64,000 nt of DNA from a plasmid: the sequence record NZ_CP023779.1; one strand, 5' to 3'. Each line of letters opens with the position of its first letter. Within the stretch, counting starts at the first letter, position 1. The notes under the pieces were generated by a model. The model searched no databases and had not been told where the DNA came from. It saw only the letters and a program-made list of their open reading frames with translations. Made by a program: the position numbers and the translations under genes. Below are positions 1 through 47,711 of this stretch, piece by piece.

Positions 1-276
1 GTGCGCACGGCCGCGGTCGCTGCGGCCCGGGCGCTGATGCAGGAGTGGAACTGGACGCGCACCCGCGCGGCGCGGGAGATAGCGGCGGGTATTCCGGTGC
101 ATCCGAACACGGTCAGCAATTGGCTGCGCGATGCGGAGCTCGCCGAGCCGGGCAGCACCGTGGCGGAGTTGCAACAGCAGGTACGCCAGCTCCAAGACCA
201 GCTGCGGGCCTCGCACACCATGACGCGCCAGCTCGTCGACGAGCGGCAGCGGCCGATCAGCAGGCGGCCGCTGTGA
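1..276 (+). CDS. hypothetical protein, possible HTH DNA-binding; 5' end may lie outside the window
   Basis: ORF opens at window edge (GTG at 1). Stop at 274-276 overlaps the GTG start of the next gene (GTGA). Basic, helix-rich sequence 'PNTVSNWLRDAELA'. Confidence 0.3.
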   Translation: MRTAAVAAARALMQEWNWTRTRAAREIAAGIPVHPNTVSNWLRDAELAEPGSTVAELQQQVRQLQDQLRASHTMTRQLVDERQRPISRRPL

Positions 277-3132: not shown

Positions 3133-4068
3133 ATGCAACCTCAGCAGGAAGACGAGCAGATCGTCGCCGAGCATGCGGTGATCGTGCAGGCGGCCGCACG
3201 GGCACTCATCGCCGCGCGTCGCGCCGTCCAGCGACACATCCGCCAGCAAGAGGCCCGCGCCGAGGCCCTCGCCCGCGCCGCCCATCGGCACACCCAGCGC
3301 AGCAACCAGGCTCGCGCCACCGTCGATCGCGAACGGGCCCAACGCAATAAGGAAGTCACCGCGCAGCACGAGCGCGAAGCGCTCATCGCGCGATGGGCTG
3401 CGGCCGAGGCAGCGCGTGAGCACGCCGCCGACGTCGCCGATGCCTGGTCGGAACGACTGCGGGAGGCCGGTATCGACCCTGAGCAAGTCAAGACGGCGGC
3501 CGCCGAGATCGACGCGGCCGGTGTGGCCGCGCCCGACCCGGCCGCCGCGCACACTGCGGCCGTGCAGGCCGCCGACCTGGTGCAGGATGTCGTGGTCGAG
3601 CAGCTGGCCGAGGAATTCGTCGAACAGCAGCTCACCGCCGCCGAGGCCGCCGCCGCGCTTGCCGATCCCGGCCCCGATGCCGAGGTCGGCGACACCCCGG
3701 ATCCAGATGACGGGAAATCACTGACCGAGCGGCTGCGTGGCACCGTGCCCGATGCGTCACTCGATGCGCCGTTCGCAGCCTGGAAACTCGCCGACCATGC
3801 CTTCGAGGAACTGGTCGACAAGGGTGCCAGTCCTCGCGAACTCGTCGCGGCCGCACGGCACTGCGCCACCGGCCGAGAAGCGGTCATGTCGATGAACGAT
3901 CTGATCGAACAGAAGAAGGAACACGCCGAAGCGGCCGAGATCCGGCGGCTCATCGCCGCGACCAAGGTGAACCGGGGCACCGCCGAGCAAGCACCGGAGC
4001 AGACTCCGCGCCCGCTCCCGGTCGAAGTCGCCGCGGAGCGAAACATCGCCGTGGAGATGGGTCGATGA
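3133..4068 (+). CDS. Ala/Glu-rich coiled-coil protein
   Basis: ATG 3133 preceded by GGAGG (3123-3127). Strongly helical A/E/R-rich sequence. Stop overlaps the coupling-protein start (ATGA). Confidence 0.5.
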   Translation: MQPQQEDEQIVAEHAVIVQAAARALIAARRAVQRHIRQQEARAEALARAAHRHTQRSNQARATVDRERAQRNKEVTAQHEREALIARWAAAEAAREHAADVADAWSERLREAGIDPEQVKTAAAEIDAAGVAAPDPAAAHTAAVQAADLVQDVVVEQLAEEFVEQQLTAAEAAAALADPGPDAEVGDTPDPDDGKSLTERLRGTVPDASLDAPFAAWKLADHAFEELVDKGASPRELVAAARHCATGREAVMSMNDLIEQKKEHAEAAEIRRLIAATKVNRGTAEQAPEQTPRPLPVEVAAERNIAVEMGR

Positions 4069-5855
4069 GTAGCCACCGCACACAGGCCCCCGCCCACCAT
4101 CGGTCCGGATGGACCGCCCTCCTGATCCTGCTCTGCGCGGGGCTGGTCCTGGGCTCGGCCGCATACGGCGCCTGGTGGCTGGCGGCGTGGCTGAGCGGCG
4201 ATCCCACCCCCACGAACCCGCTGGCCGTCGCGATCGGAACCACGACGTTCCAGGCCCGCTGGTCACCGCTGGCGACGGCGTTCACGGTGATCACCGAATC
4301 GGCGCTGATCGGTGGCGCGATCCGGGCGGCGCGGTCGTGGCGCAGCGTTTCTCAACTCGACCAGCGCGCCACGGCGATGGCCACGCCGCGGGAACTGTCC
4401 GAGGTCGCTGGTCGCAGCGCGATCGACAAGGCGAAACGGCTACGCCCGGATGCCGATGTCTCCCAGCCCGGCGGCATCGGATTGGCGGTCGGCACGACGG
4501 TGCAGGGCGGCGTGGGGGTGTACCAATCCTGGGAGGACATGCTGATCGCCTTCGCCGGCCCGCGCACGGGCAAAACCGCGGGCCTGGCGATCGGCGCGGT
4601 GATCGACGGTCCCGGCGCGGTGATCGCGACCAGCAGCAAGCGCGATCTGCGCGACCACACCCGCGGCGTCCGGGAGGGCAAGGGCAGCCGCGTGTGGGAG
4701 TCGGATCTCCAGGGGGTCACCGGTGATCCGCATCAAGAGTTCTGCTGGAACCCGCTCGGTGCCGTCACCAGCCTGAAGGCGGCGCGGCGGCTCGCGGCCC
4801 GGTTCGTGGCGGCCGAGAGAATCGAAGACGCGCGCCTGGATGGCTACTTCGACGGGGGCGCGGCCGAGTTGCTGGCCATTCATTTCCTCGCGGCCGCTGT
4901 CGCCGGAGGCGACATCCTGCACGCCTATGCGCTCCTATCGCAGGAAGAGAGTCAGCTCGCCTACAAGCTCCTCGTCGACAGTGGCCAGCTGCCCGCCGCG
5001 ACGAAACTGCGCACCGCGCAACGGTTGTACCCCAAACAACGCGACGGCCTGTACGACGTGGCCCGCCGGAATCTCAATGTCCTGACCGACCCCGACTATC
5101 TGAGAACGGTGCTGCCACCCCGCCGGATCCAGATTCCCGGCGACACCACCGAACTGGGCGCCTGGATGCCGACGCACACTCTGCCCGAGTTCGACCCGGC
5201 GGCGTTCGTGCGGTCGGCCGATGTGCTCTACGCACTGTCGGAAGAGGGCGCGGACTCCGCGGCAGCGCTCACCACAGCGCTCGTGGGCCGGGTCATCGAC
5301 GAGGCCCGCGCGCTGGCGCGCCGCAGCCCCGGCGGCCGGATGCCGGTGCCGATGGTCGCGGTTCTCGACGAAGCGGCCAACTGCTGCAAATTGCCCGATC
5401 TGCCCATGTGGTACAGCACTCTCGGATCCCAAGGGATCCTGTTTGAGACCTATCTCCACTCCCCAGCCCAGGGCGCGCGCGTATGGGGCGCCAGCCAGCT
5501 CGACGAGATGGTGTCGGCCGCGAACATCCACTACTACGGCGGCAGCGTCAAAGACATGGCCTACCTGGAAACGATCTCCAAGGCCATCGGAGAGCACGAC
5601 GTGCCGCGGTGGGCCGCGAGCCACAGTGAGCACGGTGTCTCGCATTCGCAGTCCTGGAGCACTGAGCTCGCGGTGCCGGTGTCGATGCTGTTCCAGCTGC
5701 CCAAGGACCGCGCCATCGTCATGACCAGCGGCAACGCGCCGGTCCTGGTCCGTAAATCGTTCTGGACCGACCGGCCCGACGCCGCCGAGATCCGGAAATC
5801 GAACGCCAAGTACGGCGTGGACGCCGAAGAAGAATCCGCGAAGGAGTTGCTGTGA
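4065..5855 (+). CDS. type IV secretion coupling protein (TraG/TraD/VirD4 family ATPase)
   Basis: N-terminal TM helices. Walker A 'FAGPRTGKTAG'. Walker B-like 'MVAVLDEAANCCK'. Size 596 aa. Sits next to a DUF4913-like gene as in actinobacterial T4SS elements. Confidence 0.85.
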   Translation: MSSHRTQAPAHHRSGWTALLILLCAGLVLGSAAYGAWWLAAWLSGDPTPTNPLAVAIGTTTFQARWSPLATAFTVITESALIGGAIRAARSWRSVSQLDQRATAMATPRELSEVAGRSAIDKAKRLRPDADVSQPGGIGLAVGTTVQGGVGVYQSWEDMLIAFAGPRTGKTAGLAIGAVIDGPGAVIATSSKRDLRDHTRGVREGKGSRVWESDLQGVTGDPHQEFCWNPLGAVTSLKAARRLAARFVAAERIEDARLDGYFDGGAAELLAIHFLAAAVAGGDILHAYALLSQEESQLAYKLLVDSGQLPAATKLRTAQRLYPKQRDGLYDVARRNLNVLTDPDYLRTVLPPRRIQIPGDTTELGAWMPTHTLPEFDPAAFVRSADVLYALSEEGADSAAALTTALVGRVIDEARALARRSPGGRMPVPMVAVLDEAANCCKLPDLPMWYSTLGSQGILFETYLHSPAQGARVWGASQLDEMVSAANIHYYGGSVKDMAYLETISKAIGEHDVPRWAASHSEHGVSHSQSWSTELAVPVSMLFQLPKDRAIVMTSGNAPVLVRKSFWTDRPDAAEIRKSNAKYGVDAEEESAKELL

Positions 5856-6265
5856 CTACCGCCGAGGACACCGAACCCGAGGTCACCGATGTCTACACCG
5901 ACGCGGGCGAGTGGTTCGACCACTGGCTCGCGCCCGCGCTCGCCGACGGCAAATGGCAGGGCGGCGGCAAAGGCAAGCTGGTGTGCCCGCAGTGGTACCG
6001 GCATCGGATGGTGGCGCTACGCGTCGACGCCCTGTGGCAGGAATGGGAGAAAGCCAACCGCGAGGGCGCGATGTCGAGTTGGTGGGTGTACCACTTCGAC
6101 GCGCACGCTCGCGCCATTTTCGACGGCGAGACCGGCCCCATGTACCTGTGCTCGCCCGACAAGCACCACGAAACCCCCGATCCGCTCACACCACGCCCTG
6201 TCCCACCGGGCTGGTTCGACCAGTCGGGCACCGGCGGGCCCGATTTCCGCGTGCTCACCAACTGA
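5852..6265 (+). CDS. DUF4913-like protein (conserved partner of TraG in actinobacterial conjugative elements)
   Basis: AAGGAG at 5841-5846. GTG start overlaps the TraG stop. 137 aa 'WFDHWLAP...WYRHRMVALRVDALWQEWEKANREG' recalled as the DUF4913 pattern (not verified). Confidence 0.65.
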   Translation: MTTAEDTEPEVTDVYTDAGEWFDHWLAPALADGKWQGGGKGKLVCPQWYRHRMVALRVDALWQEWEKANREGAMSSWWVYHFDAHARAIFDGETGPMYLCSPDKHHETPDPLTPRPVPPGWFDQSGTGGPDFRVLTN

Positions 6266-7237: not shown

Positions 7238-7268
7238 GATCGCGGCCCCGATCTGTCCGCAGGTCGGG
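7238..7268. terminator. GC-rich hairpin downstream of the Gly-rich gene
   Basis: 'GCGGCCCCG'-N13-'CGGGGCCGC' 9-bp stem. No T-tract, which is common in high-GC actinobacteria. Confidence 0.35.
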
Positions 7269-7384
7269 GCCGCTGCGCTGTCCAGGATTGTGCGTGCTCC
7301 GCCGCCTGCCGCGCTACTTCCCGAGCGGCCTCGCAGGTGAGATCCTGATCTTGGGAGGGGGGCAGGAAGGCGAAGGAGGTAGAG

Positions 7385-7567: not shown

Positions 7568-8042
7568 CAACAGCCACAACCGGTTTCACGATGCCCTGAG
7601 ACTCAACCCCCAGGGCATCACTGCGTTAGCGCCGGATCCGGCCGGTTACACCACCACCGCTTTACCGCCTCGATCGCGGGTTGCAACGCGCTCTCGTCAC
7701 CCGGCCCGGACCGGCCGGGGGCCGGGATTCGAGCGTCTCGAGCAACCGGTCCAGCCGGGCACGGATCTGCTCCGGCATGGGGGGTGCACAATGCGCTCAT
7801 CGGCTCCGAGTCGGCGTAGAAGATCACTGATCTCGCTGGCTTCGTGCACTGACCTCGGTCGCACTGTTACCCCCTGTCTGTCACCGTCACCACTGCCTAT
7901 TGTCGGCGCACCGGCGGCCGGTCACGGGTCGGGGCCCGGTCGGGCCACCGCGGCGCGGTCTGCTCGTCGGGACGTGTGGTGTCGAATCCGCCGCTGACCG
8001 GGGCCGAGTGTGTAGCCACAGCGGCGCGTAGGGTGGGCGACC

Positions 8043-29775: not shown

Positions 29776-30912
29776 TCACTGGTGGTCGGGGCACGTCAGG
29801 CCCGCGGCCGTGTCGCGCCACCCGTGGCGGGTCAGCCACAGGTGCACCAGTTCGGGGAGCTGACCGCCCGATGTGAGCGTGGCTGCCGCGAGCTCGCCGC
29901 CGAGGATGGGCCCGTTCGCGCACAGCGGGTGTTCGCATTCGACCGGGAATCGCTGCGCGGGTTGGCATCTCGCGCAATGGTGGGTCACGACCAGGCCGCC
30001 GGGGTTGTCGGGGGCGGTGTCGGGCTCGAGCCAGCTCCACGCGAGATCGTCGAGCATGAGGCGGGGGTCGTAGTCGCGGCCGGGGCGGGCCTGACAGCGC
30101 GGGCACGGCTCGAGGCGCTTGAACCGCTTGCGGCGGAAGGATTCTCGCCGGACGGGTGGCCGCGCGGGCGCGGTCCGCTCGGCGGTGGGGGCCTCGGCGG
30201 GCGGTGCGTCGATCACGGCGACGGCGGCCGGGGGCATCACCTCCGCCTCGGCGGTAGGCGACAGTGCGGGTCTGACGGGCTCCGGGTTGCCGGTGGCGGC
30301 CGGGCCCGCCGCGCCGTGGCGGGCGCGGGGCCGTTTTCCGACAGTGGATCGGTCCAGGTAGCCGTAGACGGTGGCGCGGCCGACGCGCAGGATCTTGGCG
30401 ATTTCGGCGACGGTGTGGCCGCCCTGGTCGTAGAGCTGCTGGGCGTGTGCCTTCTGCTCCGCGGCGAGTTTGGAGGGGCGGCCGCCGGTGCGGCCCTCGG
30501 CCCGGGCGGCGTCGAGCCCGGCCCGGGTGCCGCTGGCGATTCGGCCGCGCTGGAAAACGTCGAGCTTGGCGAACATGTCGAGCTGGGCGCGGCCCTCGGC
30601 GGTATCGGTGTCGATTCCGTCGTCGAGCACGCGCAGACCCATTCCGGCCTCGCGCAGCGCGGCACCGAGGGCGACCAGGGGGCGCAGCCCGGCGGCGAGC
30701 CGATGCAGCCCGGTGACGGTGAGGGTGTCGCCGGGGCCGGCTGCCGCGCGGATCCGCTCGAGGGCGGGCCGGGGTGCGCGTTCGGCGGCCCGTGCGCCGG
30801 TCGGCACGGTGTCGACGTGGATGTCCGCGGTGGCCACACCGGCGGCCCGGAGTGCCGCGATCTGGTCGTCCGGGGCCTCGTCGGCCGTCACGGAGACATA
30901 CCCGATCAACAT
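29776..30912 (-). CDS. serine recombinase (resolvase/invertase family) with C-terminal Cys-rich extension
   Basis: 'MLIGYVSVTADEA...' resolvase N-terminal domain. 'GGRPSKL...HTVAEIAKILRVGRATVYGYL' HTH. C-terminal 'CPRCQ...HHCARCQ...CEHPLC'. Confidence 0.8.
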   Translation of the reverse strand: MLIGYVSVTADEAPDDQIAALRAAGVATADIHVDTVPTGARAAERAPRPALERIRAAAGPGDTLTVTGLHRLAAGLRPLVALGAALREAGMGLRVLDDGIDTDTAEGRAQLDMFAKLDVFQRGRIASGTRAGLDAARAEGRTGGRPSKLAAEQKAHAQQLYDQGGHTVAEIAKILRVGRATVYGYLDRSTVGKRPRARHGAAGPAATGNPEPVRPALSPTAEAEVMPPAAVAVIDAPPAEAPTAERTAPARPPVRRESFRRKRFKRLEPCPRCQARPGRDYDPRLMLDDLAWSWLEPDTAPDNPGGLVVTHHCARCQPAQRFPVECEHPLCANGPILGGELAAATLTSGGQLPELVHLWLTRHGWRDTAAGLTCPDHQ

Positions 30913-31130
30913 GTGTCGATAATACCAGCTAGACCCTTTTCGAGACACTCAATGTCGATCAAATTAGCAGACTGATAGGTCTGGTTCTAGCCTCCGATAA
31001 ACGACCGTTATCGGCGGTGAGCACACCCTAAGTACGAAAAGTGTCAAACCTGGCCGTTGAGTGTCCGAAACCCGATCGTTTTCCGACACTGGCCGTTGAT
31101 CCGGCACACAGGAGACGGTGTGCGCCCGCG
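30913..31130. promoter_or_regulatory. candidate res/recombination site and promoter for the serine recombinase
   Basis: Lower GC. Multiple GTGTC/GACAC inverted motifs ('GTGTCGATAATACC...CGAGACAC', 'AGTGTCAAACC', 'GAGTGTCCGAAA', 'CCGACACTGG'). Direct repeat 'CTGGCCGTTGA' x2. Confidence 0.35.
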
Positions 31131-33399: not shown

Positions 33400-33828
33400 T
33401 CAGCAGGGACCGATGGTTTTGGCTCCAGCGCGGCGGCGTCGTCTGGTGTCAATGTCGGCGACGCGGGCCTTGCCGGTGGCCGCGTCCTTCTCCAAGGTTA
33501 GTAGGTTGATCACCGAGGCGTAGAGCTTCACCTGCTCTTCCAGCTCGGCGCAGTGCACCAGCAGTTCGGCGTGTTTTTCCTTCAGCTTGTCGTAGTCGCT
33601 GGGCTCGGCCGCGGCTGCGTCGGCCTGGGCGGCTTTGGCGCGGGCTTGGAACTGTTCTTTGAGGTCGGTGTGCTGGTGGGTGAGTCTCCAGCGTTCGAGA
33701 CCTGCTTCGACCGCGAGTTGGGAAACGCTGAGCCGGCCGGTGGAACGCAGCGGCGTGCCGTCGAGCAGCCGGTCCATCGCGGCCAAGAGTTTCTTGCGGA
33801 TGGGGTCGGTCTCGGTCGTGGTGGTCAC
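33400..33828 (-). CDS. small coiled-coil protein coupled to the recombinase trio
   Basis: GTG start overlapping the upstream stop (GTGA). 142 aa. Confidence 0.5.
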   Translation of the reverse strand: MTTTTETDPIRKKLLAAMDRLLDGTPLRSTGRLSVSQLAVEAGLERWRLTHQHTDLKEQFQARAKAAQADAAAAEPSDYDKLKEKHAELLVHCAELEEQVKLYASVINLLTLEKDAATGKARVADIDTRRRRRAGAKTIGPC

Positions 33829-35951
33829 CGGTGGTTCTCCAGGATCGTGTCGAGGCGGTCGAGTTCGTTCTGTTCGCGCTGGTGGCGGATCGGTGGGGCG
33901 AGTGGGTCGCTGATGATTTCGGCGAGTTCGTCTCGGCGCGTGCGGATTTCGGTGATGTCGCGATCGGTGCGGGCAATGTTGGGGCATCGGGGGCGGCAGT
34001 CGCTGATGTCGGGGGTGGTCAGGGGGTCGTCGGCGCTGCCACGGAGTTGGCAGGCGGCCTTGGTGGCGTCGAACACGCAGGTCATGCCTTTGCCGTGGAA
34101 GATCTGGAGCAGCGGGTTGCCGAGCAGGTCGCGGGCGTGCTTGCCGGTGGTGAGCACGTGCCCGGCGAACTGCTTGTGGGCGGCGGATATCCGCAGCCGG
34201 TAGTTGTCGGCGGCGGGTCCGCTGACACGCTCGCCGGTTTGCAATGCTCGGTGGTCCTCGGCGAGTTCGTCGATGCGGGCCAGGAAATCTTCGAAGGCGT
34301 AGTCGTCGGGGAATCCGGAGGCGAGATCACCCGCGTATCCCTGGAAAATGCGGGTTTCGACATGCGAATACTGCAATGCGCCGGCCACCACGCCGCGCGG
34401 CCGCCGCCGCAGAAACCATGCGAGTGTGCGCCGGAACCGGGACATGCTGATGGATCCATGAGGATCGTCCGGGACGCCGGAGATCCCGCGTTCGAGGCTG
34501 TAAGCGTTGACCCAGTCGATGAATGCGGTCAGGTCGACCGCTGCCTGGACCGACGTGCGCGCCTGGCCGACGCGGGTGATGACGCTATATCGCTGATGGT
34601 CGAACTGGGTCGGAAACAGAACTTCGTGGTCGTGCATGCGCTCGAGGACTGCGACGGCCCGGGCGACCGGTTCAACGACCACCCAGGGATCGCGTCGCAG
34701 AGCACCTGCGGGAATCTTATTGCCGTCGTCCCCGACGGCGTTTTTGAAGTAGAGCCCGGACATGAGCCAGAGACCGGTGGCGCTGTCGTAGTCGATGCAG
34801 CCGCGGCGGAGATTGAGCACTTCACCGACGCGAGCGCCGGAAAGATACGCGATGATCACAGAACAGGCGGTGCTCAGATGCCGTGCCAGGACCAGTGATT
34901 CGGTGTAGGTGAGCGTCCGGTCGCGCCAAAGACGACCGTCGAGCCGGGCGGTGATGGGCGCCTCCAGATAGGCATCGTCAGCGATCGGAATGCCGGACTC
35001 GAGCAGGAATTTGGCCAGTCCCTTGCGCCTTCGCAGGCCCTGATAGGCGCATTCGAAGATCCGTCCGAGATGCGTCCAGTGGAGCCCTATGGTGCCGTCG
35101 GGCTCTTTCCTGCCCGGCAGCATGCCGCCGGTGCCGCGCAGCCGGTCGACGTATTCGGCGGCGAGCCGGTCGACTTGGCCCCGCGGTGAGCGGACGAGCC
35201 CGGCATCTCGGCGCGGCCGTAGATCTCTGCCCCGCAGGAACATTCGTTCCGCGTGAGCGGCGAGGATGTCCTCGGAGAGGTCTTCGACGAACCGCAGTGA
35301 CCACAACAGCAGCGATTGCATCGTGTTCTCGGTGATGCGAGGGGTGAGGTTGTGCCGGTCGCTGACCGACTTTCCGAACAATTCGGCGGCGCGGTCACCG
35401 CCCCAGGGCATCGGCGGCGGCAGCCGCATGGCTTCGGGGACCGTGCTGCGATACGACCACAAGCGCCGGATATCGGTGATCTGCCGGAACTTCCAGCGGA
35501 CCGGCATGTCGGCGCCGGCGATCTCGATCAGGTAGTCGTCGAGCAATTCGGCGGTGACCTGCCGCAGCTCCGTGATGTGGTGTTCGTGCAGCCAGATCGT
35601 GAATGCGAGCAGCCGCGACCATGCGGTTTTGATGGTGCGAATCGAATATCGGCTGACGGTCGCCCGGTTCATCGGCACCGGGCAGTCGGTGTTGATCATC
35701 TGCCAGATCAGGTGTTTCATCGTCAGCCGCAGCGGGGCGGGGACCATAGCGAAGTTGATGCTGATCGCTTGGGCGTCGGCTTCGAACACCGCCTCGTTGA
35801 GATGCCACCGGTCCTCGCCGAACCGGGACAACGCAGCGGGGTCGGTGCCCGGGACCAGTTCCCTGTCGAACAGCACCAGGGTGTCGTTGTGCGGCAACGG
35901 ATTTTCGATTGCCGGATCGGTGTGAGTGACGTTGTAGGCAAGGTGTGTCAT
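33825..35951 (-). CDS. tyrosine recombinase (third of trio, RitC-like)
   Basis: 'ARVGEVLNLRRGCI' (box I Arg), 'RFRRTLAWFL' (H/R-x-x-R), 'GALQYSHVE' (catalytic Tyr region). 708 aa. Confidence 0.65.
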   Translation of the reverse strand: MTHLAYNVTHTDPAIENPLPHNDTLVLFDRELVPGTDPAALSRFGEDRWHLNEAVFEADAQAISINFAMVPAPLRLTMKHLIWQMINTDCPVPMNRATVSRYSIRTIKTAWSRLLAFTIWLHEHHITELRQVTAELLDDYLIEIAGADMPVRWKFRQITDIRRLWSYRSTVPEAMRLPPPMPWGGDRAAELFGKSVSDRHNLTPRITENTMQSLLLWSLRFVEDLSEDILAAHAERMFLRGRDLRPRRDAGLVRSPRGQVDRLAAEYVDRLRGTGGMLPGRKEPDGTIGLHWTHLGRIFECAYQGLRRRKGLAKFLLESGIPIADDAYLEAPITARLDGRLWRDRTLTYTESLVLARHLSTACSVIIAYLSGARVGEVLNLRRGCIDYDSATGLWLMSGLYFKNAVGDDGNKIPAGALRRDPWVVVEPVARAVAVLERMHDHEVLFPTQFDHQRYSVITRVGQARTSVQAAVDLTAFIDWVNAYSLERGISGVPDDPHGSISMSRFRRTLAWFLRRRPRGVVAGALQYSHVETRIFQGYAGDLASGFPDDYAFEDFLARIDELAEDHRALQTGERVSGPAADNYRLRISAAHKQFAGHVLTTGKHARDLLGNPLLQIFHGKGMTCVFDATKAACQLRGSADDPLTTPDISDCRPRCPNIARTDRDITEIRTRRDELAEIISDPLAPPIRHQREQNELDRLDTILENHR

Positions 35952-37843
35952 CGCAGATCGAGCTCCCGGTTCAGGAACCGCTCCACCAGGGCGCGGTCGG
36001 CGTCACCGATGACGGCGCGGGCATCGGCGATATCGATGTCGTCGTGCTCGCCGAGGAGATCGGCGAGCTGGGCGTGTGGCAGCCCGTAGCGTTGTGTCCA
36101 GGCCAGCGGGGTCATCTCGGCTTTGCGGGCCTCGAGCTGATCGTGGACGAGGATCTGGACCGGCAGATGGTGCGGCATCGCCCGGGCGCAGGAGCAGCCC
36201 AGACATTGCATGAACGAGGCCCGGCATGGCCCGTCCGGCGAAGAGTGCGGGCCGGTGCCGTCATCGGTGCAGGCCGCCATCACCGTGTCCAGCTCCCGGG
36301 CGATCATGCGTTTGAGCATGGTCGCGTTCACGCCAAATTCGGCGGCGATCGTGTCCGGGTCGCGTGTGGCTCTGGCGAGATCGCCGCCGGTGAGGCGGGT
36401 CATGACGCCTCGAGTGCGGGCCTTGTCGACCTCCTCGGTCAGCGCCTTGGCAACGACCCTCTGGTAGTCGACGAGACTGGCGCGGTTGCGGGTCAGATAG
36501 TCGTTGACCAGGGTGGTTTCCTGGTGCGCGACGGGCTTTTGATGCAGTTCGAGGTAGGTCAACCGGATCCGGCGCATGTCGATCTGGAGAGGAATCGGGT
36601 TGCCGTCCTCGTCGGTCCGGTCGGACACGAGGTTGTGCTTGCGCGCCCAGGTGGTCAGACAGTTGCCCGGCTGGCTGACCCGCAGCCCGCGGCCCTTCGC
36701 CCGGCCGCCGGTGGCGTGGTAGGAGACGAAGATGCTGTTCGTGCCCGAGATCTCACGAGTGCGTGAGGTGAGCTCGGCCAGCAGCGCGTAGACCCCGAAC
36801 GGAGTGTGAAGCTCGTCGCGGGCCGACATCTGCCCGGCATGGTCGGGGACAGTGATCCAATCCGGGACGTCGGACAACGCCAGGTTCATGTAGGCGTGAC
36901 GGCCGCGGCGCGGTTTGACGGTGTCGAGGATGGCGGTAGGTGTCTGCCCGGTGTGCCCGTCCGCGCGGTGGTGGGCGACGGTGGTATTCAGGATCACGCT
37001 CGCGTTCTGGCCGGTCATCGCGGCCAGCAGAACCTCACCGGCGAACGCTTCCAACCCGGTCAGATGCAGCTGGCTGATGATGTCGATGATCGATCCGACG
37101 TGGAACACCCAGCCGAGCGCGGGCTCGAGCGTGCTGTTGTAGCTCGACGACACCGATTCCGGCGCCATGCGGCGCCGGGGGACGTCGGCGTGCTGGTCGA
37201 CGTAATCCAGCAACACCAGCTCGCGGGGATCAGTGTCACCCCAGTCCCCGGCGCGGTATCGCTGCAACACCTCCCGGTTGCCGCGGATCCGTGCAGCGGC
37301 AGCACGCAGATCCGCGCGAGCAGCATCGACGATGCGTTTGAACTCGGCCTTGGTGTAGCCAGCCTTGCTGGTCTTGCGGATCCGCTTGGGATGCCGCTCC
37401 TGCGCCTTGGCCACCACGGCATCGGTGACGCCGTCGGCGACCCGCAACAGCGCCTTGACCTGCCCCAAATCATGGCAGACCTCGACACCGGCGTTCAGAC
37501 GCGCGACGGTGAACCCGTCGATGTGCTCCGGTGCCAGATCGCTCATCGTCTGCGGCGGATCCGGCATCGCCGCCAGATAGCAGGCGAACGCCCGCACGGA
37601 GTAAAACGTGTGTTTGAACGTGCTGAGCGTCGTCAGCCCGTTGCCTGGCGCGGTGCGCCGCGCGAACGCGACCGCCAACCCTCGCTGGATCTGCGGTGCG
37701 ACCGGCAGGCGGCCGAGATCGAAATCGGCGAATTCGCTGCCGCCCTGCACGAAACAACGAACCACCAGGCCGCCCTCGAGAAGACCACGCGCCGTGCCGG
37801 ATCCGGTGCCCGGGAGAGCGGCCTTGCGCCCTCGCCGGCTCAC
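35948..37843 (-). CDS. tyrosine recombinase-like (second of trio, RitB-like)
   Basis: 4-bp overlaps on both sides. 'TGGRAKGRG...MRRIRLTYLE' motifs. 631 aa. Confidence 0.55.
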   Translation of the reverse strand: MSRRGRKAALPGTGSGTARGLLEGGLVVRCFVQGGSEFADFDLGRLPVAPQIQRGLAVAFARRTAPGNGLTTLSTFKHTFYSVRAFACYLAAMPDPPQTMSDLAPEHIDGFTVARLNAGVEVCHDLGQVKALLRVADGVTDAVVAKAQERHPKRIRKTSKAGYTKAEFKRIVDAARADLRAAAARIRGNREVLQRYRAGDWGDTDPRELVLLDYVDQHADVPRRRMAPESVSSSYNSTLEPALGWVFHVGSIIDIISQLHLTGLEAFAGEVLLAAMTGQNASVILNTTVAHHRADGHTGQTPTAILDTVKPRRGRHAYMNLALSDVPDWITVPDHAGQMSARDELHTPFGVYALLAELTSRTREISGTNSIFVSYHATGGRAKGRGLRVSQPGNCLTTWARKHNLVSDRTDEDGNPIPLQIDMRRIRLTYLELHQKPVAHQETTLVNDYLTRNRASLVDYQRVVAKALTEEVDKARTRGVMTRLTGGDLARATRDPDTIAAEFGVNATMLKRMIARELDTVMAACTDDGTGPHSSPDGPCRASFMQCLGCSCARAMPHHLPVQILVHDQLEARKAEMTPLAWTQRYGLPHAQLADLLGEHDDIDIADARAVIGDADRALVERFLNRELDLR

Positions 37844-39315
37844 CGGGCAGCCCCAACCGGGTCGCTGATCACCCTCGGATGCGTCGCCATCGCGTCGGCA
37901 ACGAACCTGTCGATATCGAATCCTTCGACATGGGCGAGCAGAACCTCCACCGACAAGCTCCGGAACGGCTCTAGGTATACGAGTCTGGTCGTCTCGACCC
38001 GGCGGTGGCCAAGGACGGTCTGCACGAGGTCCCAGGTGTCGCCGAACTGGTCACGGAAGTCCCGGGACTCCTCTTCGTCCAGATGACCAATCTGTTTGGC
38101 GTAGAACAGTTTCCCCACCGAGAACCATCGCAATGCCGCGCTGTGGCGCGCCATGTGCGCGGTGACGTGGAAGTTGTCCAGCCCCTGGGCGGCAATACGC
38201 TGATTCGCCGTCTCGAAGGTGTGATGCCACCCGTGCGGATCTCGCGGCACCCCGTCCTCGTTCAACCACAACCACACCGGCTCCAGCCCCGCAGCGGTCT
38301 GCCTGAACATCCGACGGCGCAGCAGCGGCGGCACCATCACCCAGTCCCGCACCACCCCCGCGCCGGCCTTCTCGTCAGGAATCACCACCGAGCCACGGCG
38401 CTTGCCGGTGCCGACCACCATCCGCCCCGGCAACCGCTCGTAAGTCCCGGCCGCCTGAGCATGCCGGACCGCCCGGGCCCGCGCCCCTTCGACATAGGAC
38501 CAGACCGCGCTCAACGCCCGCCGTGGAATCCAATACGGGTGCCCATATTCACCTTTCGCGCATTTACCCGCCAGCTCACAGGTGTAGTACCCGCGTCCGG
38601 CTTCCAACGGCGGCAACTCCGGCAAGACCACGCTCGCCCATTCGGTCAGCCGCAAGGCTGTGCCGTAGAGGCCATCGGCGAACGCCGCGTCACGCTGCTC
38701 GTTGCGGCCGCGCCACGACCGATCGTGGCGACCCGACAATTCCCGGCCGCGCAATCCGACATCGCGCCACCGTGCCCACGCTGCCGGATCCAGCCACTTC
38801 ACCGACGCCTCACGGCGTGCGGCCGGGAAGTCCACCTCGGCGAACACGTCGAGGACGTCGGTGTAACGCTGGGCGGCCCAGCCGTAGAACTTCTTGCAGG
38901 CCGCGACGTCCTTCGCGAACGTCGAGGTCCGCACCGTCGCCAGGTTCGCCGGATCGGTCAGCCGCCAGAATTCGAACGCCTCGGCATGCTCATCGTCAGC
39001 CTGCCACCAGGCACAACTCCGTGATTCCAGAAAATTCATCCACATCGCCAGCGAGTGGACGTAGGCGCGACGAGTATTCGCCGCTAGCACTCCGAACCTC
39101 GCCGACGCCAAGAACTGGTTCACACGGGGATCCGGAAACCCGTTCGGCCCCAACAAGAACCATTGACCGTGACGGACGCCCAACCTTCGGGCCCACGAAC
39201 CCACGTCTCCAGCGATTCCGAACTCGCCCGGCAACTCGGGCCACGGCCGCTCCAGACCGAACTGATGCACAGACCAATGTCCAGTGCTCAATGCACGCTT
39301 CCCCTCTCGGCTCAC
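37840..39315 (-). CDS. tyrosine recombinase (first of trio, RitA-like)
   Basis: 'HMARHSAALRWF', 'YAKQIGHLD', 'VLGHRRVETTRLVYLEP' (H-x-x-R ... Y). 491 aa. Confidence 0.7.
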   Translation of the reverse strand: MSREGKRALSTGHWSVHQFGLERPWPELPGEFGIAGDVGSWARRLGVRHGQWFLLGPNGFPDPRVNQFLASARFGVLAANTRRAYVHSLAMWMNFLESRSCAWWQADDEHAEAFEFWRLTDPANLATVRTSTFAKDVAACKKFYGWAAQRYTDVLDVFAEVDFPAARREASVKWLDPAAWARWRDVGLRGRELSGRHDRSWRGRNEQRDAAFADGLYGTALRLTEWASVVLPELPPLEAGRGYYTCELAGKCAKGEYGHPYWIPRRALSAVWSYVEGARARAVRHAQAAGTYERLPGRMVVGTGKRRGSVVIPDEKAGAGVVRDWVMVPPLLRRRMFRQTAAGLEPVWLWLNEDGVPRDPHGWHHTFETANQRIAAQGLDNFHVTAHMARHSAALRWFSVGKLFYAKQIGHLDEEESRDFRDQFGDTWDLVQTVLGHRRVETTRLVYLEPFRSLSVEVLLAHVEGFDIDRFVADAMATHPRVISDPVGAAR

Positions 39316-40760: not shown

Positions 40761-41504
40761 ATGACCTCAGAGCCCACGCCGGGATTTGATTCATTCGTCA
40801 CGCGGTGTCGATATCCCGGTCGCGGCATTGCACTCGGTCGCGACGCGGCGGGGGCCGGGTTCGCCGCGTACTGGCTGACCGGGCGCAGCACGGAATCGCA
40901 AGAGCGCCGGATCATCGTCGGCGTAGATGCCCTCGATGTCAGCGACACCGCGTCAGACCAATCCGACCCATTGCGCCACTACACCGCGATCATCCGCCTC
41001 ACAGACCGGATCATTGTCGGCAACGGCACCCAGGTGGGCGAAGTTGCTGGGGATTTCGGCGGCGGTGTTTCCGTATGGGAGGCGCTGAGCAGGCTCGAAT
41101 ACGAGCCGGATCCGCCGATCTTGACACCCCGGATCACCGCAACCGCGACGGTGACCGGTGATGAGGTGAGGGACGTAATCCTGTCCGGCGCAGTAGCACA
41201 CCCTCGGTGGCCGAACACCGCTCAGCACAACATGTTTCACACTCACCGCCTCGAGGTGGGGCAATGCCATGCGATGACGACCTACAACGGGGACACCGCA
41301 GCGGTGTCGACGAGCGGGCAACCGGCCGCCGTGCAGGTCGATGCGCTGTGGCCGACATTGGCTGAACGCATCTGGGACAACCTCGATCCCGCGCTGCGCG
41401 TGGCGGTCGCGGTTGTCCCGCTCGTCGGAGACCTGCGCGAAGGCCGGTTTATCGGCGTTCACGAGCCCCACATTCACGCAGGCACGGGGCGCAGCACGAC
41501 GTGA
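40761..41504 (+). CDS. IMP cyclohydrolase (PurO)-like family protein
   Basis: 'YPGRGIALGRDAAGAGFAAYWLTGRSTESQER' parallels PurO 'YLGRILAVGRN...AIAYRVSSRSFPNR' (recalled, not verified). Convergent with, and overlapping, the methyltransferase 3' end. Confidence 0.45.
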   Translation: MTSEPTPGFDSFVTRCRYPGRGIALGRDAAGAGFAAYWLTGRSTESQERRIIVGVDALDVSDTASDQSDPLRHYTAIIRLTDRIIVGNGTQVGEVAGDFGGGVSVWEALSRLEYEPDPPILTPRITATATVTGDEVRDVILSGAVAHPRWPNTAQHNMFHTHRLEVGQCHAMTTYNGDTAAVSTSGQPAAVQVDALWPTLAERIWDNLDPALRVAVAVVPLVGDLREGRFIGVHEPHIHAGTGRSTT

Positions 41505-42331
41505 GAGCCGAACCCGAGGCGTCCCGTCACCGCCTCGGGAAGCCAACGCTGCGCGGTGCGGGAGAACTCGATAGCGCGGTTGCTCCACGGGATCGCCAGG
41601 CTGTCCGGGCTGATCCGTTCGACGTGGAAGCCGGACCATTCGAGCTCCCGCAGCACCACACCGGGGAAGAACCACCGATGCACAGTGTCGACGCCGAATT
41701 CGTCGACGGACTCGGTAACCGACACCCGACCCTGTATCCGCGCTGCCACGGTGCGAACCAGACCGCGAGCGGCCGAGGGCAGCGAGCCACGACCGAAGAC
41801 GTAGGGGTCGGTCCCACCACCCATCCGCACCCATGCGGTCGGATTCAGACATGAGGGGAATGCGACGACGCACCGGTCGATGGTGTGTTCTCGCAGGAAT
41901 CCCAGCAGGGCCCGAGGATGGGGCGCGTGCTCTAGGATGTGCAGCGCGGTGACCACCTGGGCCGGTTCGACGGGCAGCTCCTCGAACCGGCGATTTCCAC
42001 TGTGCACGAACTCGATTCGACCAGCGTCGACGCCGTTGACCTCGGCGAAGCGTTCCAGTGCAGCGATATGATTGCGCGAGGGGCTGATGATGGTCACCTG
42101 TTTGCCCAGACCAGCGGCAAGGACTCCGAGCACGCCGTCGACCGATGCACCGCGGGTGACATCCATGATGCGGGTGTAGCCATCGAGCAACGGCAGGATG
42201 TTGCCGATCTTCTGCCGGTGGCTGAACTGGTGTATCGGTCGTTGCGACCACCACCGCGATTCCAGTCGTTGCCAAGCATGGTCGGCGGATTCGGCGTCGA
42301 CGGCCGCGCCGAACGCGGCGAAGTAGTTCAT
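41474..42331 (-). CDS. class I SAM-dependent methyltransferase
   Basis: 'RIMDVTRGASVDGVLGVLAAGLGKQVTIISPS' Rossmann/SAM motif I-like. Last gene of a coupled four-gene operon. Confidence 0.6.
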   Translation of the reverse strand: MNYFAAFGAAVDAESADHAWQRLESRWWSQRPIHQFSHRQKIGNILPLLDGYTRIMDVTRGASVDGVLGVLAAGLGKQVTIISPSRNHIAALERFAEVNGVDAGRIEFVHSGNRRFEELPVEPAQVVTALHILEHAPHPRALLGFLREHTIDRCVVAFPSCLNPTAWVRMGGGTDPYVFGRGSLPSAARGLVRTVAARIQGRVSVTESVDEFGVDTVHRWFFPGVVLRELEWSGFHVERISPDSLAIPWSNRAIEFSRTAQRWLPEAVTGRLGFGSHVVLRPVPA

Positions 42332-42924
42332 GCGTGGCCTTCTGATTCGAGTATCCAGTCGATCACTTCAGTGATCTGCGCCGGTTGATTGTCGTGGATG
42401 GTCAGCACGCCGGGACGGTCGGCGAGCTCGGCGAACGCCTGGTGCAGGGTGGTCAGGAATTCGGGCTGATCCTCGCGGCGGAACACCGTGTCGCGATCAC
42501 CCCGGACCCGCTGGGCGATCCGGCCGTCGAGTCGCTGCTGATTGAGGTCCAGGTCCGGCAGTAGCAGCAGCGTCGGCGGCTGAGCCGGGAGGTGGTCGAT
42601 GATCTGCCGCAACCTCTTGTGCTGGTCACCGGAGATCCAGCCCAGCCGGGCGTATGCCTCGATGTAAGCCTCGGAGTCCGCGGCGCCACGGCTGACCAGC
42701 ACACAGCGACCCGGAACGGGCTCGATGAGCTGGGGCATGACGATGCGGTGGTACAGCCGCAGCAGGCTGCGCTCCCAGTCCTCGAGCGCGCGGAAAGAAC
42801 CGAACTCACTCAGGAAGTCGATATCGACAGCCGGGTCGGTGAACCGGTCGTCGGTCAACAGTTTGTCGATCAGATACGTTTTGCCTCCGCCATGCGGGCC
42901 GGAAACACAAACACAGTGCTTCAT
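42328..42924 (-). CDS. P-loop NTPase, (deoxy)nucleoside kinase-like
   Basis: Walker A 'VSGPHGGGKTYLIDKLL'. About 200 aa. 'LLLLPDLD' Walker B-like. ATGA overlap with the methyltransferase. Confidence 0.6.
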   Translation of the reverse strand: MKHCVCVSGPHGGGKTYLIDKLLTDDRFTDPAVDIDFLSEFGSFRALEDWERSLLRLYHRIVMPQLIEPVPGRCVLVSRGAADSEAYIEAYARLGWISGDQHKRLRQIIDHLPAQPPTLLLLPDLDLNQQRLDGRIAQRVRGDRDTVFRREDQPEFLTTLHQAFAELADRPGVLTIHDNQPAQITEVIDWILESEGHA

Positions 42925-43637
42925 CGTGAAACCTCCTGGAAGAACTCGTATTTCGTCTCGGTGGTGGGTTCCAGTGGCACCGGGGAGTGATGTTGGATCC
43001 GTTGCGCGGCCCGGCGCACCTGCTCGGCGACCTCGACGAGTGATCCTGGGTCGCGGGCGGCCTCGGAAGCCTCGTATTCGATCTCCAACTGCCGCTGAAC
43101 GCGGTCACCGGCCACGCACACTGTGACCGCGACCGTGTAACAGAACCCGTCCGCGTCGTACGCGAGCACTTTCGACCTGCGCTTTTCCAGCGGCTCTGAC
43201 AGTCCGCCGCCGGATTCGGCGGCCCACTGTGCCGCGTCCTGGTCGTAGCGGAAACGCTCGGTGGACACCATCACCGGTGCGCCGACGGTGTCGACCGTGT
43301 GCTGTTTGATCTTCAGCAGGGGCGCGTTGCGCCACGTGAAGTAGGAATACTCCACCTCGGCGCCGGTGTCGTCGCTGCCGATCAGGTAGCGGGGGTACAC
43401 GGTGGTTTCACCGTTACTGACACGGTCGATGAGCAGCGGCGGCAGCTCGCCGAGGATGCGCCACAGCAGTGCGGTGGGGTCGGTGTCCGGATCGGTGATG
43501 GCGAGTTTCGCCTCGACCTCCCAGTCCGGATGCCAATCCCGGTAGCGGCCGGACTGCTTGAGCGTGGTGGTCAGCGTTCCGGCGACGGCGTGCGCAGCCA
43601 GAGCCGGGTCGAGAGCAGGGTTCAGGGCGGTGCTCAT
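42921..43637 (-). CDS. CYTH-like (triphosphate tunnel metalloenzyme) domain protein candidate
   Basis: N-terminal 'WEVEAKLAI' (ExExK). Later 'RFRYD' and 'LEIEYEASE' acidic motifs. GAGGA RBS. 4-bp overlaps on both sides. Confidence 0.4.
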   Translation of the reverse strand: MSTALNPALDPALAAHAVAGTLTTTLKQSGRYRDWHPDWEVEAKLAITDPDTDPTALLWRILGELPPLLIDRVSNGETTVYPRYLIGSDDTGAEVEYSYFTWRNAPLLKIKQHTVDTVGAPVMVSTERFRYDQDAAQWAAESGGGLSEPLEKRRSKVLAYDADGFCYTVAVTVCVAGDRVQRQLEIEYEASEAARDPGSLVEVAEQVRRAAQRIQHHSPVPLEPTTETKYEFFQEVSR

Positions 43638-44332
43638 GGCTTTGTCCTCGAATCGGTTTCGGGCATGGGATGAAATACGCCGTTGCGGGCCCGCAGACAT
43701 TCGAGGGCGCGCCGCACCTGGCGGGCAGGGCTGTAGGTGTCGTAGAACTCGCCGGTTTCCTCGTTGAAAATGCGCGCGTGAGGTTGGAGGGAAGGCCCGC
43801 GTACGAACAGCGTCGTGCACGGCTCGTCTGCGCTGGGGACGTGCACCTGATGAGGGACGCGGGCGGCCAGCGAGCTCGATCCGCCAGCCACTCTCACATC
43901 GCGACTACGTTCGGTGACAACGGCGCGGCGAGTGAGTTCGGCGCATTCGGTGATCTCGAAGCGCCGCTCGACATACGAGCCGGTGAGGATGATCGTGCTC
44001 ATATGCCATTTGTGATAGTGGACTTTCTCAATCGCGTTGCCCGCGATGCATGTCGGCCAGAATCGGTGCAGCCGAACCCGGAACATATCGTCGGGATGGA
44101 CGTAGAGGGTGAACTTGTCCATGAGAGTCCGCGGATACTCGGTGTAGGGCTCGAGTGCGCGGTACAGGGGGTCATCGTTGAGGATTTCGTCGATCCGTTC
44201 CGCCACGATGGAGTAGTCGCGGTAGGCACTCTGCAACAACGCCTCCACGGCGGCCGCTTCGGTGTCCATGAATGTTGGTGAGTTCCAGCTGACATCGCGC
44301 GTGAGCGCGGCGACGAATGCATTCCAGCTCAT
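43634..44332 (-). CDS. cupin-like protein (possible oxygenase)
   Basis: 'YVHPDDMFRVRLHRFWP...EKVHYHKWHMSTIILTGSYVERRF' His-rich beta-barrel-like motifs. First gene of the coupled operon. Confidence 0.35.
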   Translation of the reverse strand: MSWNAFVAALTRDVSWNSPTFMDTEAAAVEALLQSAYRDYSIVAERIDEILNDDPLYRALEPYTEYPRTLMDKFTLYVHPDDMFRVRLHRFWPTCIAGNAIEKVHYHKWHMSTIILTGSYVERRFEITECAELTRRAVVTERSRDVRVAGGSSSLAARVPHQVHVPSADEPCTTLFVRGPSLQPHARIFNEETGEFYDTYSPARQVRRALECLRARNGVFHPMPETDSRTKP

Positions 44333-46269: not shown

Positions 46270-46472
46270 ACCTGCCTCAGCTCCATCCGCCGCTGCGGGG
46301 CGTCGTGCTCATCGCGAGGGGAAGATGAGCAATGAACTCAGCACCGAGTGCACTGGATCACAGCTTGGCAGGCTCAGGGACAGGCTTTGTTCGCCAGACG
46401 AACACATGCAATGCCAGAATCTGCGCATACCATGGGGAGTGGCCACCCCGCTGTTCCGAAGGGGAACTCACC

Positions 46473-47711
46473 ATGATCGAAACCGAAGATCGCTACATCG
46501 GCCGCCAGGTCGCCACACTCCGCAACCGCCGAGGAATGACTCAGCAGGTCCTTGCCGACCTCCTGGGTATCAGTCGATCGCAACTCGCGAAATACGAATC
46601 CGGCCTGCAACCACTCGACTCTCGCAAGATGCTGTATGCCATCGCGGAGGCGTTGCAAGTCTCGATCGCTGATCTGACGGGACACGCGGAGGACAAGCAC
46701 CTGTCGTCCGCTTCGGTCTTCCACGCTGCTGTTCCGCGCATCGAAGCCGCGCTGCTGTCGGCGGGACATGTGGACGATGTTCGGGCGCCGGCCACGGTGG
46801 CTGTGCTCGCTCAGACCGCCGATCTCGCACTCGATCTGCGGATGGCGGGTGACCTGTCGAAACTTGGTTCGCTGCTGCCTGACCTGATCACCGATTGCTA
46901 CCGGCGGACAGTTGACGGACCGGAACCCGACCGAAACGTCGCGTGGTCGGCACTGGCTCGAGCAGCGTTCGCGACGGCTCTAGCCAGCAAAGGACTGGGC
47001 TACACGTCGCTCGCTTGGAACGCCGCACGAGTAACCGCCGAAGCAGCAGGCATCATCGGCGACAAAGTCGCGCTGGCGGCTTCTGAATTCGTCTCATCAC
47101 AAGTACTGCTCGCGATGCCCGGTAGCCTTCCTGCGGCACTGGGGCGGATCCAGGCCGCCACCGACCGGATGCAGACCGACCTGAGCGGCACACCGGAGGG
47201 CCTCCAACTGTATGGAATGTTGAACTTGCAGGGCGCTCTCACTTCGGCGGCATTGGGTCGCGACTCGGCCGACCATCTCGCCGAGGCACGGGAAACAGCA
47301 TCTCGCACAGGGGAATCCGACGAATCTGCTTTCCGTCTGGATTTTGGCCCATCCAATGCCGCCATCTGGGGGATGTCGGTCGCGCTCGAAGAAGGCCGAG
47401 GCGGCGCGGCCGTTGCACTCGCCACTGAAGTCGATCCGACTGCCATCGGCACCGCTGAACGGCAGGCGCGTTTCTTCATCGAGCAGGGTCGCGGACATGC
47501 GATGGAGGGCCAATATGCTGAAGCAATGGCGGCTCTCCTGCGTGCGGAGACCATAGCTCCGCAGTACGTTCGCTCACGTGTTGTTGTTCGTGAACTCGTT
47601 GGCTACATGCTGCGGAAGGCTCGCCGCGATCTCACCGCCGGGGAACTCGGCAAGCTGGCCCAGCGCGTAGGGGCCATTCCCGCTCCGGCCGGTTTGTCGC
47701 ACCTGTCCTAA
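46473..47711 (+). CDS. XRE-family HTH transcriptional regulator with long helical (TPR-like) C-terminal domain
   Basis: 'MTQQVLADLLGISRSQLAKYESG' HTH_XRE. GAAGGGGA RBS. 412 aa. Confidence 0.75.
   Translation: MIETEDRYIGRQVATLRNRRGMTQQVLADLLGISRSQLAKYESGLQPLDSRKMLYAIAEALQVSIADLTGHAEDKHLSSASVFHAAVPRIEAALLSAGHVDDVRAPATVAVLAQTADLALDLRMAGDLSKLGSLLPDLITDCYRRTVDGPEPDRNVAWSALARAAFATALASKGLGYTSLAWNAARVTAEAAGIIGDKVALAASEFVSSQVLLAMPGSLPAALGRIQAATDRMQTDLSGTPEGLQLYGMLNLQGALTSAALGRDSADHLAEARETASRTGESDESAFRLDFGPSNAAIWGMSVALEEGRGGAAVALATEVDPTAIGTAERQARFFIEQGRGHAMEGQYAEAMAALLRAETIAPQYVRSRVVVRELVGYMLRKARRDLTAGELGKLAQRVGAIPAPAGLSHLS

Follow-up and report, generated by a model that had tools for sequence, protein, structure and literature searches.

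Gene content of the locus

Sequence record NZ_CP023779.1 represents a plasmid, of which a stretch of 64,000 nucleotides was analysed here (referred to as the window). Five genes between positions 40,761 and 44,332 of this window encode a cupin-like protein, a putative divergent triphosphate tunnel metalloenzyme (TTM) of the CYTH fold, a putative P-loop kinase of the thymidylate kinase/deoxynucleoside kinase (TMPK/dNK) type, a putative class I S-adenosylmethionine (SAM)-dependent methyltransferase and a PurO-family protein resembling inosine monophosphate (IMP) cyclohydrolase (Table 1). The first four genes are located on the minus strand and are coupled by ATGA stop/start overlaps, i.e., cupin-TTM at 43637/43634, TTM-kinase at 42924/42921 and kinase-methyltransferase at 42331/42328, and the PurO-like gene runs toward them from the opposite strand, the methyltransferase stop at 41474 and the PurO-like stop at 41504 resulting in a convergent overlap of 31 bp. 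A preliminary description, made from the sequence alone, had reported four minus-strand genes joined by 4-bp overlaps, a convergent PurO-like gene and the motifs WEVEAKL, LEIEYE and VSGPHGGGKT; all of these are present at the positions given there, and all five genes are coding. The 3′ overlap between methyltransferase and PurO-like gene amounts to 31 bp in three Nocardia loci (41474..41504 in the window, 12128..12158 in L001 and 12081..12111 in L011), and outside Nocardia the PurO-like gene is found co-directional in other genera.

The window is composed of high-GC DNA, and entries of Nocardia terpenica match its proteins with 100% identity. All five open reading frames (ORFs) show a GC content of 0.76–0.82 at the third codon position (GC3) and of 0.40–0.53 at the second (GC2), in the order GC3 > GC1 > GC2 as in real actinobacterial genes, and alternative frames overlapping the five ORFs do not show this pattern. 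Ratios of non-synonymous to synonymous substitution (dN/dS) of 0.14–0.41 against the orthologues in two other loci indicate purifying selection on all genes. Because of the positional GC pattern and the dN/dS values the observation of five ORFs is real rather than a product of chance. Promoter and terminator scans gave no signal above chance.

Table 1. Features of the window, with the five enzyme genes first, followed by the upstream genes and by genes of the surrounding element.
Feature	Coordinates	Strand	Remarks
Cupin-like protein	43634..44332	minus	start ATG 44332, AGGAAAG ahead
Predicted TTM (CYTH fold), divergent	42921..43637	minus	
Putative P-loop kinase, TMPK/dNK type	42328..42924	minus	
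Putative class I SAM-dependent methyltransferase	41474..42331	minus	
PurO-family (IMP cyclohydrolase-like) protein	40761..41504	plus	convergent with methyltransferase
p230-like protein, 233 aa	44402..45103	minus	start GTG 45103 after AAGGAGG
p176-like protein, 168 aa	45121..45627	minus	start GTG 45627 after AGGAG
Small protein, 88 aa	45701..45967	minus	hydrophobic N-terminus, Cys-rich stretch; first gene of string
XRE-family helix-turn-helix (HTH) and tetratricopeptide repeat (TPR) regulator	46332..47711	plus	divergent from operon; Pfam HTH_31 1.1e-12, HTH_3, TPR_2
NlpC/P60 hydrolase	45..1418	plus	
TraG/TraD-type coupling protein	4065..5855	plus	
TrwC relaxase/AAA_30 helicase, 2138 aa	9489..15905	minus	
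Serine resolvase	29776..30948	minus	
Tyrosine recombinase, 491 aa	37840..39315	minus	
DUF1173 protein, 115 bits	39284..40426	plus	between recombinase and PurO-like gene

Assignment of the encoded proteins

PurO is an IMP cyclohydrolase of the family PF07826 (Kang et al., 2007; PMC6486802). The PurO-like protein of the window scores 81.7 bits with the Pfam model IMP_cyclohyd, the cut-off of which is 28.1, and fails both PurO equivalogs of NCBIfam, scoring 33 versus 158 bits with TIGR01922 and 37 versus 150 bits with NF003167. A profile built from seven PurO-like orthologues retrieved the PurO of M. thermautotrophicus (MthPurO, 2NTK) at 2e-25, which a pairwise phmmer search of the PDB with the protein did not retrieve. 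Invariant columns are Y18, G20, R21, R42, Y74, N88, G89, E115, D117 and T122-P123-R124-I125, and the N-terminal YxGR, R(S), Y, NG and ExD..TPRI motifs of the family align with MthPurO, the Tyr56 of which is aligned with a Leu, an exchange that has been reported among bacterial PurOs. Neither the window nor the related loci contain pur genes. While the protein thus shares the Pfam family with archaeal and bacterial PurO, it lies far under the equivalog cut-offs and outside a pur-gene context, which is why we assign it, judging by sequence, to the PurO family but not to the housekeeping PurOs.

The product of the second gene is predicted to belong to the CYTH/TTM superfamily at the level of the fold. 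In an AlphaFold2 model built from 36 sequences it adopts a beta-barrel tunnel fold; an earlier model from three sequences was poor, with a predicted local distance difference test value (pLDDT) of 51. Across these 36 sequences the residues E40, E42, K44, K109, K111, K152, R154, K156, E185 and E187 show no variation or a conservation of at least 90%, and the family exhibits the N-terminal ExExK as well as alternating basic and acidic strand residues. Tunnel fold, ExExK and charged strands would connect it to the CYTH/TTM enzymes such as YgiF, ThTPase and the class IV cyclase CyaB. As none of the 36 members matches Pfam CYTH, even at E=1, and as the family profile retrieved no TTM from the PDB by sequence (a single-sequence PDB search was uninformative), we place the protein outside the Pfam family. 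It differs from the solved TTMs by an identity of only about 13% and by extra N-terminal helices, and from classical CYTH enzymes by a conserved Cys174, His113 and Q181/Q183, which are particular to this family. Arabidopsis TTM1 (7z67), matched in both fold searches, likewise combines a TTM with a P-loop nucleoside-kinase-like protein, whereas in the window kinase and TTM are encoded by separate genes. The family is represented by 36 sequences among 1.84 billion proteins.

The kinase carries the Walker A motif GPHGGGKT and its family profile retrieves thymidylate kinase of S. aureus at 1.8e-8 and deoxyadenosine/deoxycytidine kinases (dAK/dCK) at 8e-5. It matches the thymidylate kinases of PHROG 761 at 1.7e-5, and the Paenibacillus orthologue gives weak matches to dNK, AAA_18 and AAA_28; with the single sequence all Pfam and NCBIfam matches stay below cut-off and the PDB search is uninformative. 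We therefore classify it on these profile matches as a nucleoside or nucleotide kinase of the TMPK/dNK type. For the methyltransferase, the window protein shows weak matches to Methyltransf_23 and Methyltransf_12 below the Pfam cut-offs, its orthologues carry Methyltransf_11/12/25, and the family profile leads to CmoM, UbiG (about 1e-7) and MitM, within a range of 1e-7 to 1e-6. Motif I has the unusual form D-x-(T/G/C)-R-G-(A/G)-S-V-D-G. The protein is accordingly classified as a class I SAM-dependent methyltransferase, closest to CmoM and UbiG; about 40 clusters of the family were found among 5.8 billion proteins. In L002 (10705-12105, plus strand), and also in L004, kinase and methyltransferase apparently form a single fusion of 466 amino acids, which recurs in several assemblies made independently of one another. 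The L002 fusion may contain a frameshift close to the C-terminus of its methyltransferase part.

The cupin-like protein matches PHROG 4786, annotated as cysteine dioxygenase, at 4.6e-10, and source annotations refer to the gene as cupin or cysteine dioxygenase. A weak match to Cupin_2 is found in 15 of the 24 family members, H89, H105 and H107 are invariant and H161 is nearly so, and a search of PDB sequences gave no match. The protein may thus be a histidine-rich, cysteine-dioxygenase-like cupin, the weakest of the five assignments. In Actinacidiphila (L009, 7247-8684, plus strand) a TMPK-like kinase and a member of the same cupin family are paired without TTM, methyltransferase or PurO, in the surroundings of a non-ribosomal peptide synthetase (NRPS)-like cluster with genes for an acyl carrier protein (ACP), 2-oxoacid dehydrogenase E1/E2, AMP-binding and NTP_transf_5 proteins.

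The gene identities put forward in the preliminary description could be maintained, that of the cupin weakly, although Pfam recognises neither the protein called CYTH-like nor the one called cupin there. Profile searches, which it had proposed as a check, did not place the proteins in unrelated housekeeping families.

Conservation and partner genes of the module

Neighbourhoods were collected via the TTM, cupin and methyltransferase families. In 15 non-redundant loci TTM, kinase and methyltransferase are found side by side; a sixteenth combines TTM, methyltransferase and cyclohydrolase. These loci derive from three other Nocardia strains or contigs, from Paenarthrobacter nicotinovorans (L007), Streptomyces sp. 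NBC_00280 (L015), Paenibacillus thailandensis (L016), a genome-scale ENA contig (L017) and about eight low-GC metagenome contigs (30–49% GC), so that the module is spread over Actinomycetota, Bacillota and low-GC metagenomes, covering three bacterial phyla. The core is accompanied by the cupin in eight loci and by the PurO-like gene in ten, and the latter is co-directional with it in five of the loci (L007, L016, L017, L018 and L021), which substantiates the suggested functional link of the PurO-like gene to the others. In L015 and L021 the cupin gene follows the methyltransferase gene. As gene order and strand vary in this way, the linkage is functional and selected rather than inherited synteny, and the cluster, for which conservation in other genomes had been proposed as a check, is indeed kept as a unit. 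In Paenibacillus thailandensis (L016, 11416-12996 and 14068-14480) a DDE transposase/insertion sequence (IS) lies between kinase and methyltransferase and the cupin gene is split into two fragments, as if this copy of the module were in decay.

The module is rare. A scan at the level of GTDB species found two loci only among 185,579 species genomes; tblastn searches with TTM and methyltransferase detected no copies in PLSDB plasmids or GenBank phages, and none were present in the IMG/VR viral contigs. An exact look-up of the window proteins in a contig index found none, and a weak blastn match to a Nocardia plasmid proved to be unrelated.

In two low-GC metagenome loci, L028 (3820-4524, plus strand) and L022 (3-584, plus strand), PurO is replaced by a stand-alone MGS-like domain which matches the IMP cyclohydrolase domain of PurH at 1.6e-23, and the stand-alone cyclohydrolase of L028 matches ForH from formycin biosynthesis at 3.6e-12. 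This swap of a PurO-type for a PurH-type protein is a non-orthologous displacement between two folds that are unrelated but share their activity. The alternation provides strong indirect evidence that the module needs the closure or opening of the ring of a nucleotide similar to IMP or FAICAR (5-formamidoimidazole-4-carboxamide ribonucleotide), and it represents a clean natural experiment pointing to the chemistry performed.

Partner genes of a biosynthetic type are found in many of the related loci. Nucleotidyltransferases of the NTP_transf_5 or the Pol-beta/NTP_transf_2 type are encoded in eight module loci; the enzyme is fused to PqqD in L017 and to a carrier domain in L015 and adjoins a PqqD gene in L007 and L018, PqqD being restricted to L007, L017 and L018. 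Exporters (ABC/ABC2, MatE or MFS) are present in nine module loci, AMP-binding, PP-binding and condensation genes in L015 and L028, and an ATP-grasp gene in L007. An inosine-uridine nucleoside hydrolase is encoded between kinase and methyltransferase in L020, L024 and L025, and L025 also encodes a protein of the inositol-monophosphatase family. The window itself belongs to a conjugative plasmid or an integrative and conjugative element (ICE) on which the cassette is cargo, and its two closest relatives, L001 and L002, are plasmid- or ICE-like as well, with FtsK/SpoIIIE, WhiB and ParA genes. These three copies contain neither nucleotidyltransferase nor exporter genes; the Nocardia copies on plasmids or ICEs, the window copy among them, consist of only the five-enzyme core and two unknown proteins under an XRE-TPR regulator.

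Proposed role and alternative explanations

We propose that the region constitutes the core of a rare, mobile biosynthetic cassette for the synthesis or tailoring of a purine ribonucleotide that is non-canonical and of the IMP/FAICAR type, a reading to which we assign a probability of about 0.5. It builds on the five enzyme classes, with a weak assignment for the cupin, on their co-inheritance across phyla, the cyclohydrolase displacement and the biosynthetic-type partners, as shown by the data described above. The cyclohydrolase would close or open the six-membered ring of a nucleotide resembling 5-aminoimidazole-4-carboxamide ribonucleotide (AICAR), FAICAR or IMP, the methyltransferase and the cupin, presumed to be a non-haem-iron oxygenase, would decorate this nucleotide and the kinase would raise its phosphorylation state. 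The resulting triphosphate might then be the substrate of the TTM, which would release pyrophosphate from it, cyclise it or hydrolyse it. In many of the relatives the product may be handed over to a Pol-beta-type or NTP_transf_5 nucleotidyltransferase that would transfer it to a peptide or a carrier-bound acceptor, and a final export via ABC, MatE or MFS pumps is conceivable in these relatives.

Several points weigh against this proposal. For none of the five proteins has a product, a substrate or an activity been established, and the order of the steps is conjecture. The low equivalog scores mean that the PurO-like protein could have a different activity; moreover, the genes include none for a formyltransferase or any other enzyme that modifies AICAR, which leaves the substrate of the cyclohydrolase unexplained. 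The assignment of the cupin is weak and several loci do not contain it. Hand-over and export, in the form given above, cannot apply to the window, L001 and L002, because nucleotidyltransferase and exporter are lacking there, and a set of five enzymes that is carried by a conjugative element and neighbours an XRE regulator suits a function in resistance or conflict as well.

A self-resistance or detoxification cassette would inactivate a toxic nucleotide or nucleoside analogue by methylation, phosphorylation, oxidation, triphosphate hydrolysis and ring opening, with the plasmid copies acting as orphan immunity. The analogue would come from competitors or, in some genomes, from the biosynthetic genes nearby. 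The three closest copies reside on mobile elements without nucleotidyltransferase and exporter, as orphan resistance genes often do, larger clusters place the module beside exporters, and it is general knowledge that TTMs and P-loop kinases can be house-cleaning or drug-modifying enzymes. We nevertheless consider this explanation unlikely: four to five co-conserved enzymes including a swapped cyclohydrolase are pathway-like and go far beyond what resistance usually needs, some loci have genes for a nucleoside hydrolase and a phosphatase within the module, and searches of Pfam and NCBIfam revealed no similarity to known resistance families. The preliminary description had considered two functional options, an anti-phage or abortive-infection system based on nucleotide-derived signals and a small nucleoside-derivative pathway. 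The biosynthetic neighbours and the displacement of PurO by a PurH-type enzyme favour a nucleoside or nucleotide-derivative pathway, and the anti-phage option gained no support. According to the latter, the purine pool would be depleted or altered, or a chain-terminating or signalling nucleotide would be made upon infection, and this would agree with the cargo position on a conjugative element near recombinases and an XRE-type regulator, with an nSTAND NTPase encoded a few kb upstream of the module in L011, and with the viperin-type systems that nucleotide-modifying enzymes together with a kinase bring to mind from general knowledge. Yet eight proteins compared with PADLOC-DB 2.0 gave no significant match (best E 0.045-0.069), no effector or sensor is recognisable and no known defence genes directly adjoin the module; many of the copies lie on chromosomes in biosynthetic-looking clusters among exporters, NRPS-like and PqqD/nucleotidyltransferase genes, and phage records and viral contigs contain no copies, all of which makes a role in defence improbable.

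A further alternative would be that the module provides the mobile element with a modified purine (deoxy)nucleotide with which its own nucleic acid is modified, e.g., for restriction evasion, by analogy with the base hypermodification of phages by nucleotide kinase and triphosphohydrolase. This would fit the copies on mobile elements that lack exporters, and the combination of a kinase, a triphosphate-acting enzyme and a methyltransferase follows the logic of several phage nucleotide pathways known in general. This is highly improbable in view of the lack of a linked polymerase, transglycosylase or DNA-modifying transferase, of the exporters linked to most of the distant copies and of the absence of the module from phage records and viral contigs. 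That ordinary genes of purine salvage or de novo synthesis have come together by chance has hardly any probability, even if PurO is a family of the purine pathway and TMPK-like kinases are housekeeping enzymes, since the PurO-like protein stays under the equivalog cut-offs with no other pur genes nearby, the TTM and methyltransferase families are extremely rare, with two loci in the species genomes scanned, and the module is carried by a mobile element.

Comparison with known systems

Text searches on the gene combination, on PF14907 and on peptide-nucleotide RiPPs (peptides made on the ribosome and modified after translation) yielded no description of the gene set, in agreement with the earlier view that the gene order is not that of a described system. 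The nucleocidin clusters of Streptomyces calvus and S. virens contain the fluorination genes orf(-3), orf2 and orf3, and two of the proteins, Orf2 (WP_142191278) and Orf(-3) (WP_233452298), lack informative sequence annotation. In AlphaFold models Orf2 is TTM-like and Orf(-3), with three histidines, resembles a cysteine/thiol dioxygenase, and both are genetically essential for a modification, itself unexplained, that an adenosine-derived nucleoside undergoes (Wojnowska et al., 2023; PMC10946740). The window likewise pairs an orphan TTM with a histidine-rich, putatively cysteine-dioxygenase-like cupin in a nucleotide context, a likeness at the level of the fold only. The histidines are 115/117/200 in nucleocidin but 105/107/161 in the window cupin, a histidine phosphatase is encoded there and none in the window, and the nucleocidin set has no PurO-like gene, adjacent TMPK-like kinase or methyltransferase of the module type. 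Short peptides deduced from the published nucleocidin primers are absent from the members of the module families.

The C-nucleoside pathways of formycin and pyrazofurin resemble the module in the use of a dedicated IMP-cyclohydrolase-type enzyme, ForH (PDB 6NKO), within a specialised nucleoside pathway, but the window enzyme is of the PurO and not of the PurH type and is not accompanied by PurA/B/C paralogues. To our knowledge, TTM, cupin and the methyltransferase of the module have not been reported in the formycin/pyrazofurin pathway. Peptidyl-nucleotide RiPPs of the microcin C type share with the relatives of the module the linkage to nucleotidyltransferases, PqqD and exporters, which suggests a peptide-nucleotide conjugate for these relatives. 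They differ in that the module has no ThiF/MccB-like enzyme and that no precursor peptide was identified in any locus, and in the window the nucleotidyltransferase, PqqD and exporter partners are lacking, as is a RiPP recognition element (PqqD-like). ForH-type cyclohydrolases, genuine PurO, the classical CYTH enzymes with the plant kinase-TTM tandem and the microcin C type each share one aspect with the module and differ in the rest.

In extension of the proposed cassette we tentatively raise the possibility, with a low likelihood, that the module builds a modified purine nucleotide which, in the fuller forms of the module, nucleotidyltransferases that are PqqD-linked or carrier-fused attach to ribosomal peptides or to carrier-bound substrates, giving a new class of peptide-nucleotide natural products, and/or that the TTM-cupin pair corresponds to the duo needed for the 4′-fluorination of nucleocidin. 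If the latter link is true, the module families would provide a set of homologues and a tractable model for this long-standing fluorination problem.

The module is real and conserved and apparently undescribed. A specialised nucleotide pathway is a known kind of system; the composition of this one and two of its protein families are new. If the proposed synthesis of a new purine nucleotide derivative is true, an unrecognised and very rare cassette moves between Actinomycetota, Bacillota and other phyla, and it would be a new source of nucleoside and nucleotide antimetabolites. The module furthermore gives a context to two families that lacked one, the TTM family outside Pfam and the histidine-rich cupin, and suggests a non-housekeeping role for bacterial PurO homologues.

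Upstream genes and mobile-element context

Coupling of the four minus-strand genes is real, but further co-directional genes upstream had been missed when these were described as a four-gene operon. Comparison with L002, a metagenome contig, revealed that the string runs on upstream of the cupin gene with genes for a p230-like protein, a p176-like protein and a small membrane protein. The p230-like protein is 81% identical to a protein of 230 amino acids in L002, with a dN/dS of 0.20; it is common to L002 only and gave no match in Pfam (even at E=1), NCBIfam or PADLOC. For the p176-like protein the identity to a 176-aa protein of L002 is 74% with a dN/dS of 0.21; it has no Pfam match even at E=1 and is found neither in L001 nor in any distant locus. 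The small protein is homologous to the 107-aa product of the first gene of L002 (phmmer 8.9e-9, also detected by tblastn) and does not match any family. L002 contains an extra gene for an HpcH/HpaI aldolase or citrate-lyase-beta-like protein (7162-8025, plus strand) between the small protein and the p176-like protein, which is not found in the window.

The XRE-TPR protein likely regulates the operon. A homologous XRE regulator with 31% identity occupies the same divergent position in L002, and in L001 the corresponding position is filled by a TPR protein. The divergent pairing of an XRE-HTH/TPR regulator with a small protein whose N-terminus resembles a signal peptide or a membrane segment is kept in the window and in L002 (6790..7113 with 5037..6254), an architecture that, by analogy, recalls the peptide-sensing regulators of the RRNPP type.

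The mobile nature of the surrounding element, proposed earlier, is borne out by a TrwC relaxase, a coupling protein of the type IV secretion kind (T4 coupling protein), a resolvase and an integrase (Table 1), and the element also encodes DUF932 and DUF3560 proteins. Next to the cassette, three successive large ORFs of 708, 631 and 491 amino acids on the minus strand (33825..39315) are joined by 4-bp overlaps (35948-35951 and 37840-37843). Their interpretation as a recombinase trio was rejected on the basis of Pfam searches, the last ORF alone being integrase-like and the other two having no match even at E=1. The annotated 5′ end of the DUF1173 gene overlaps the 5′ end of this recombinase gene by 32 bp on the opposite strand.

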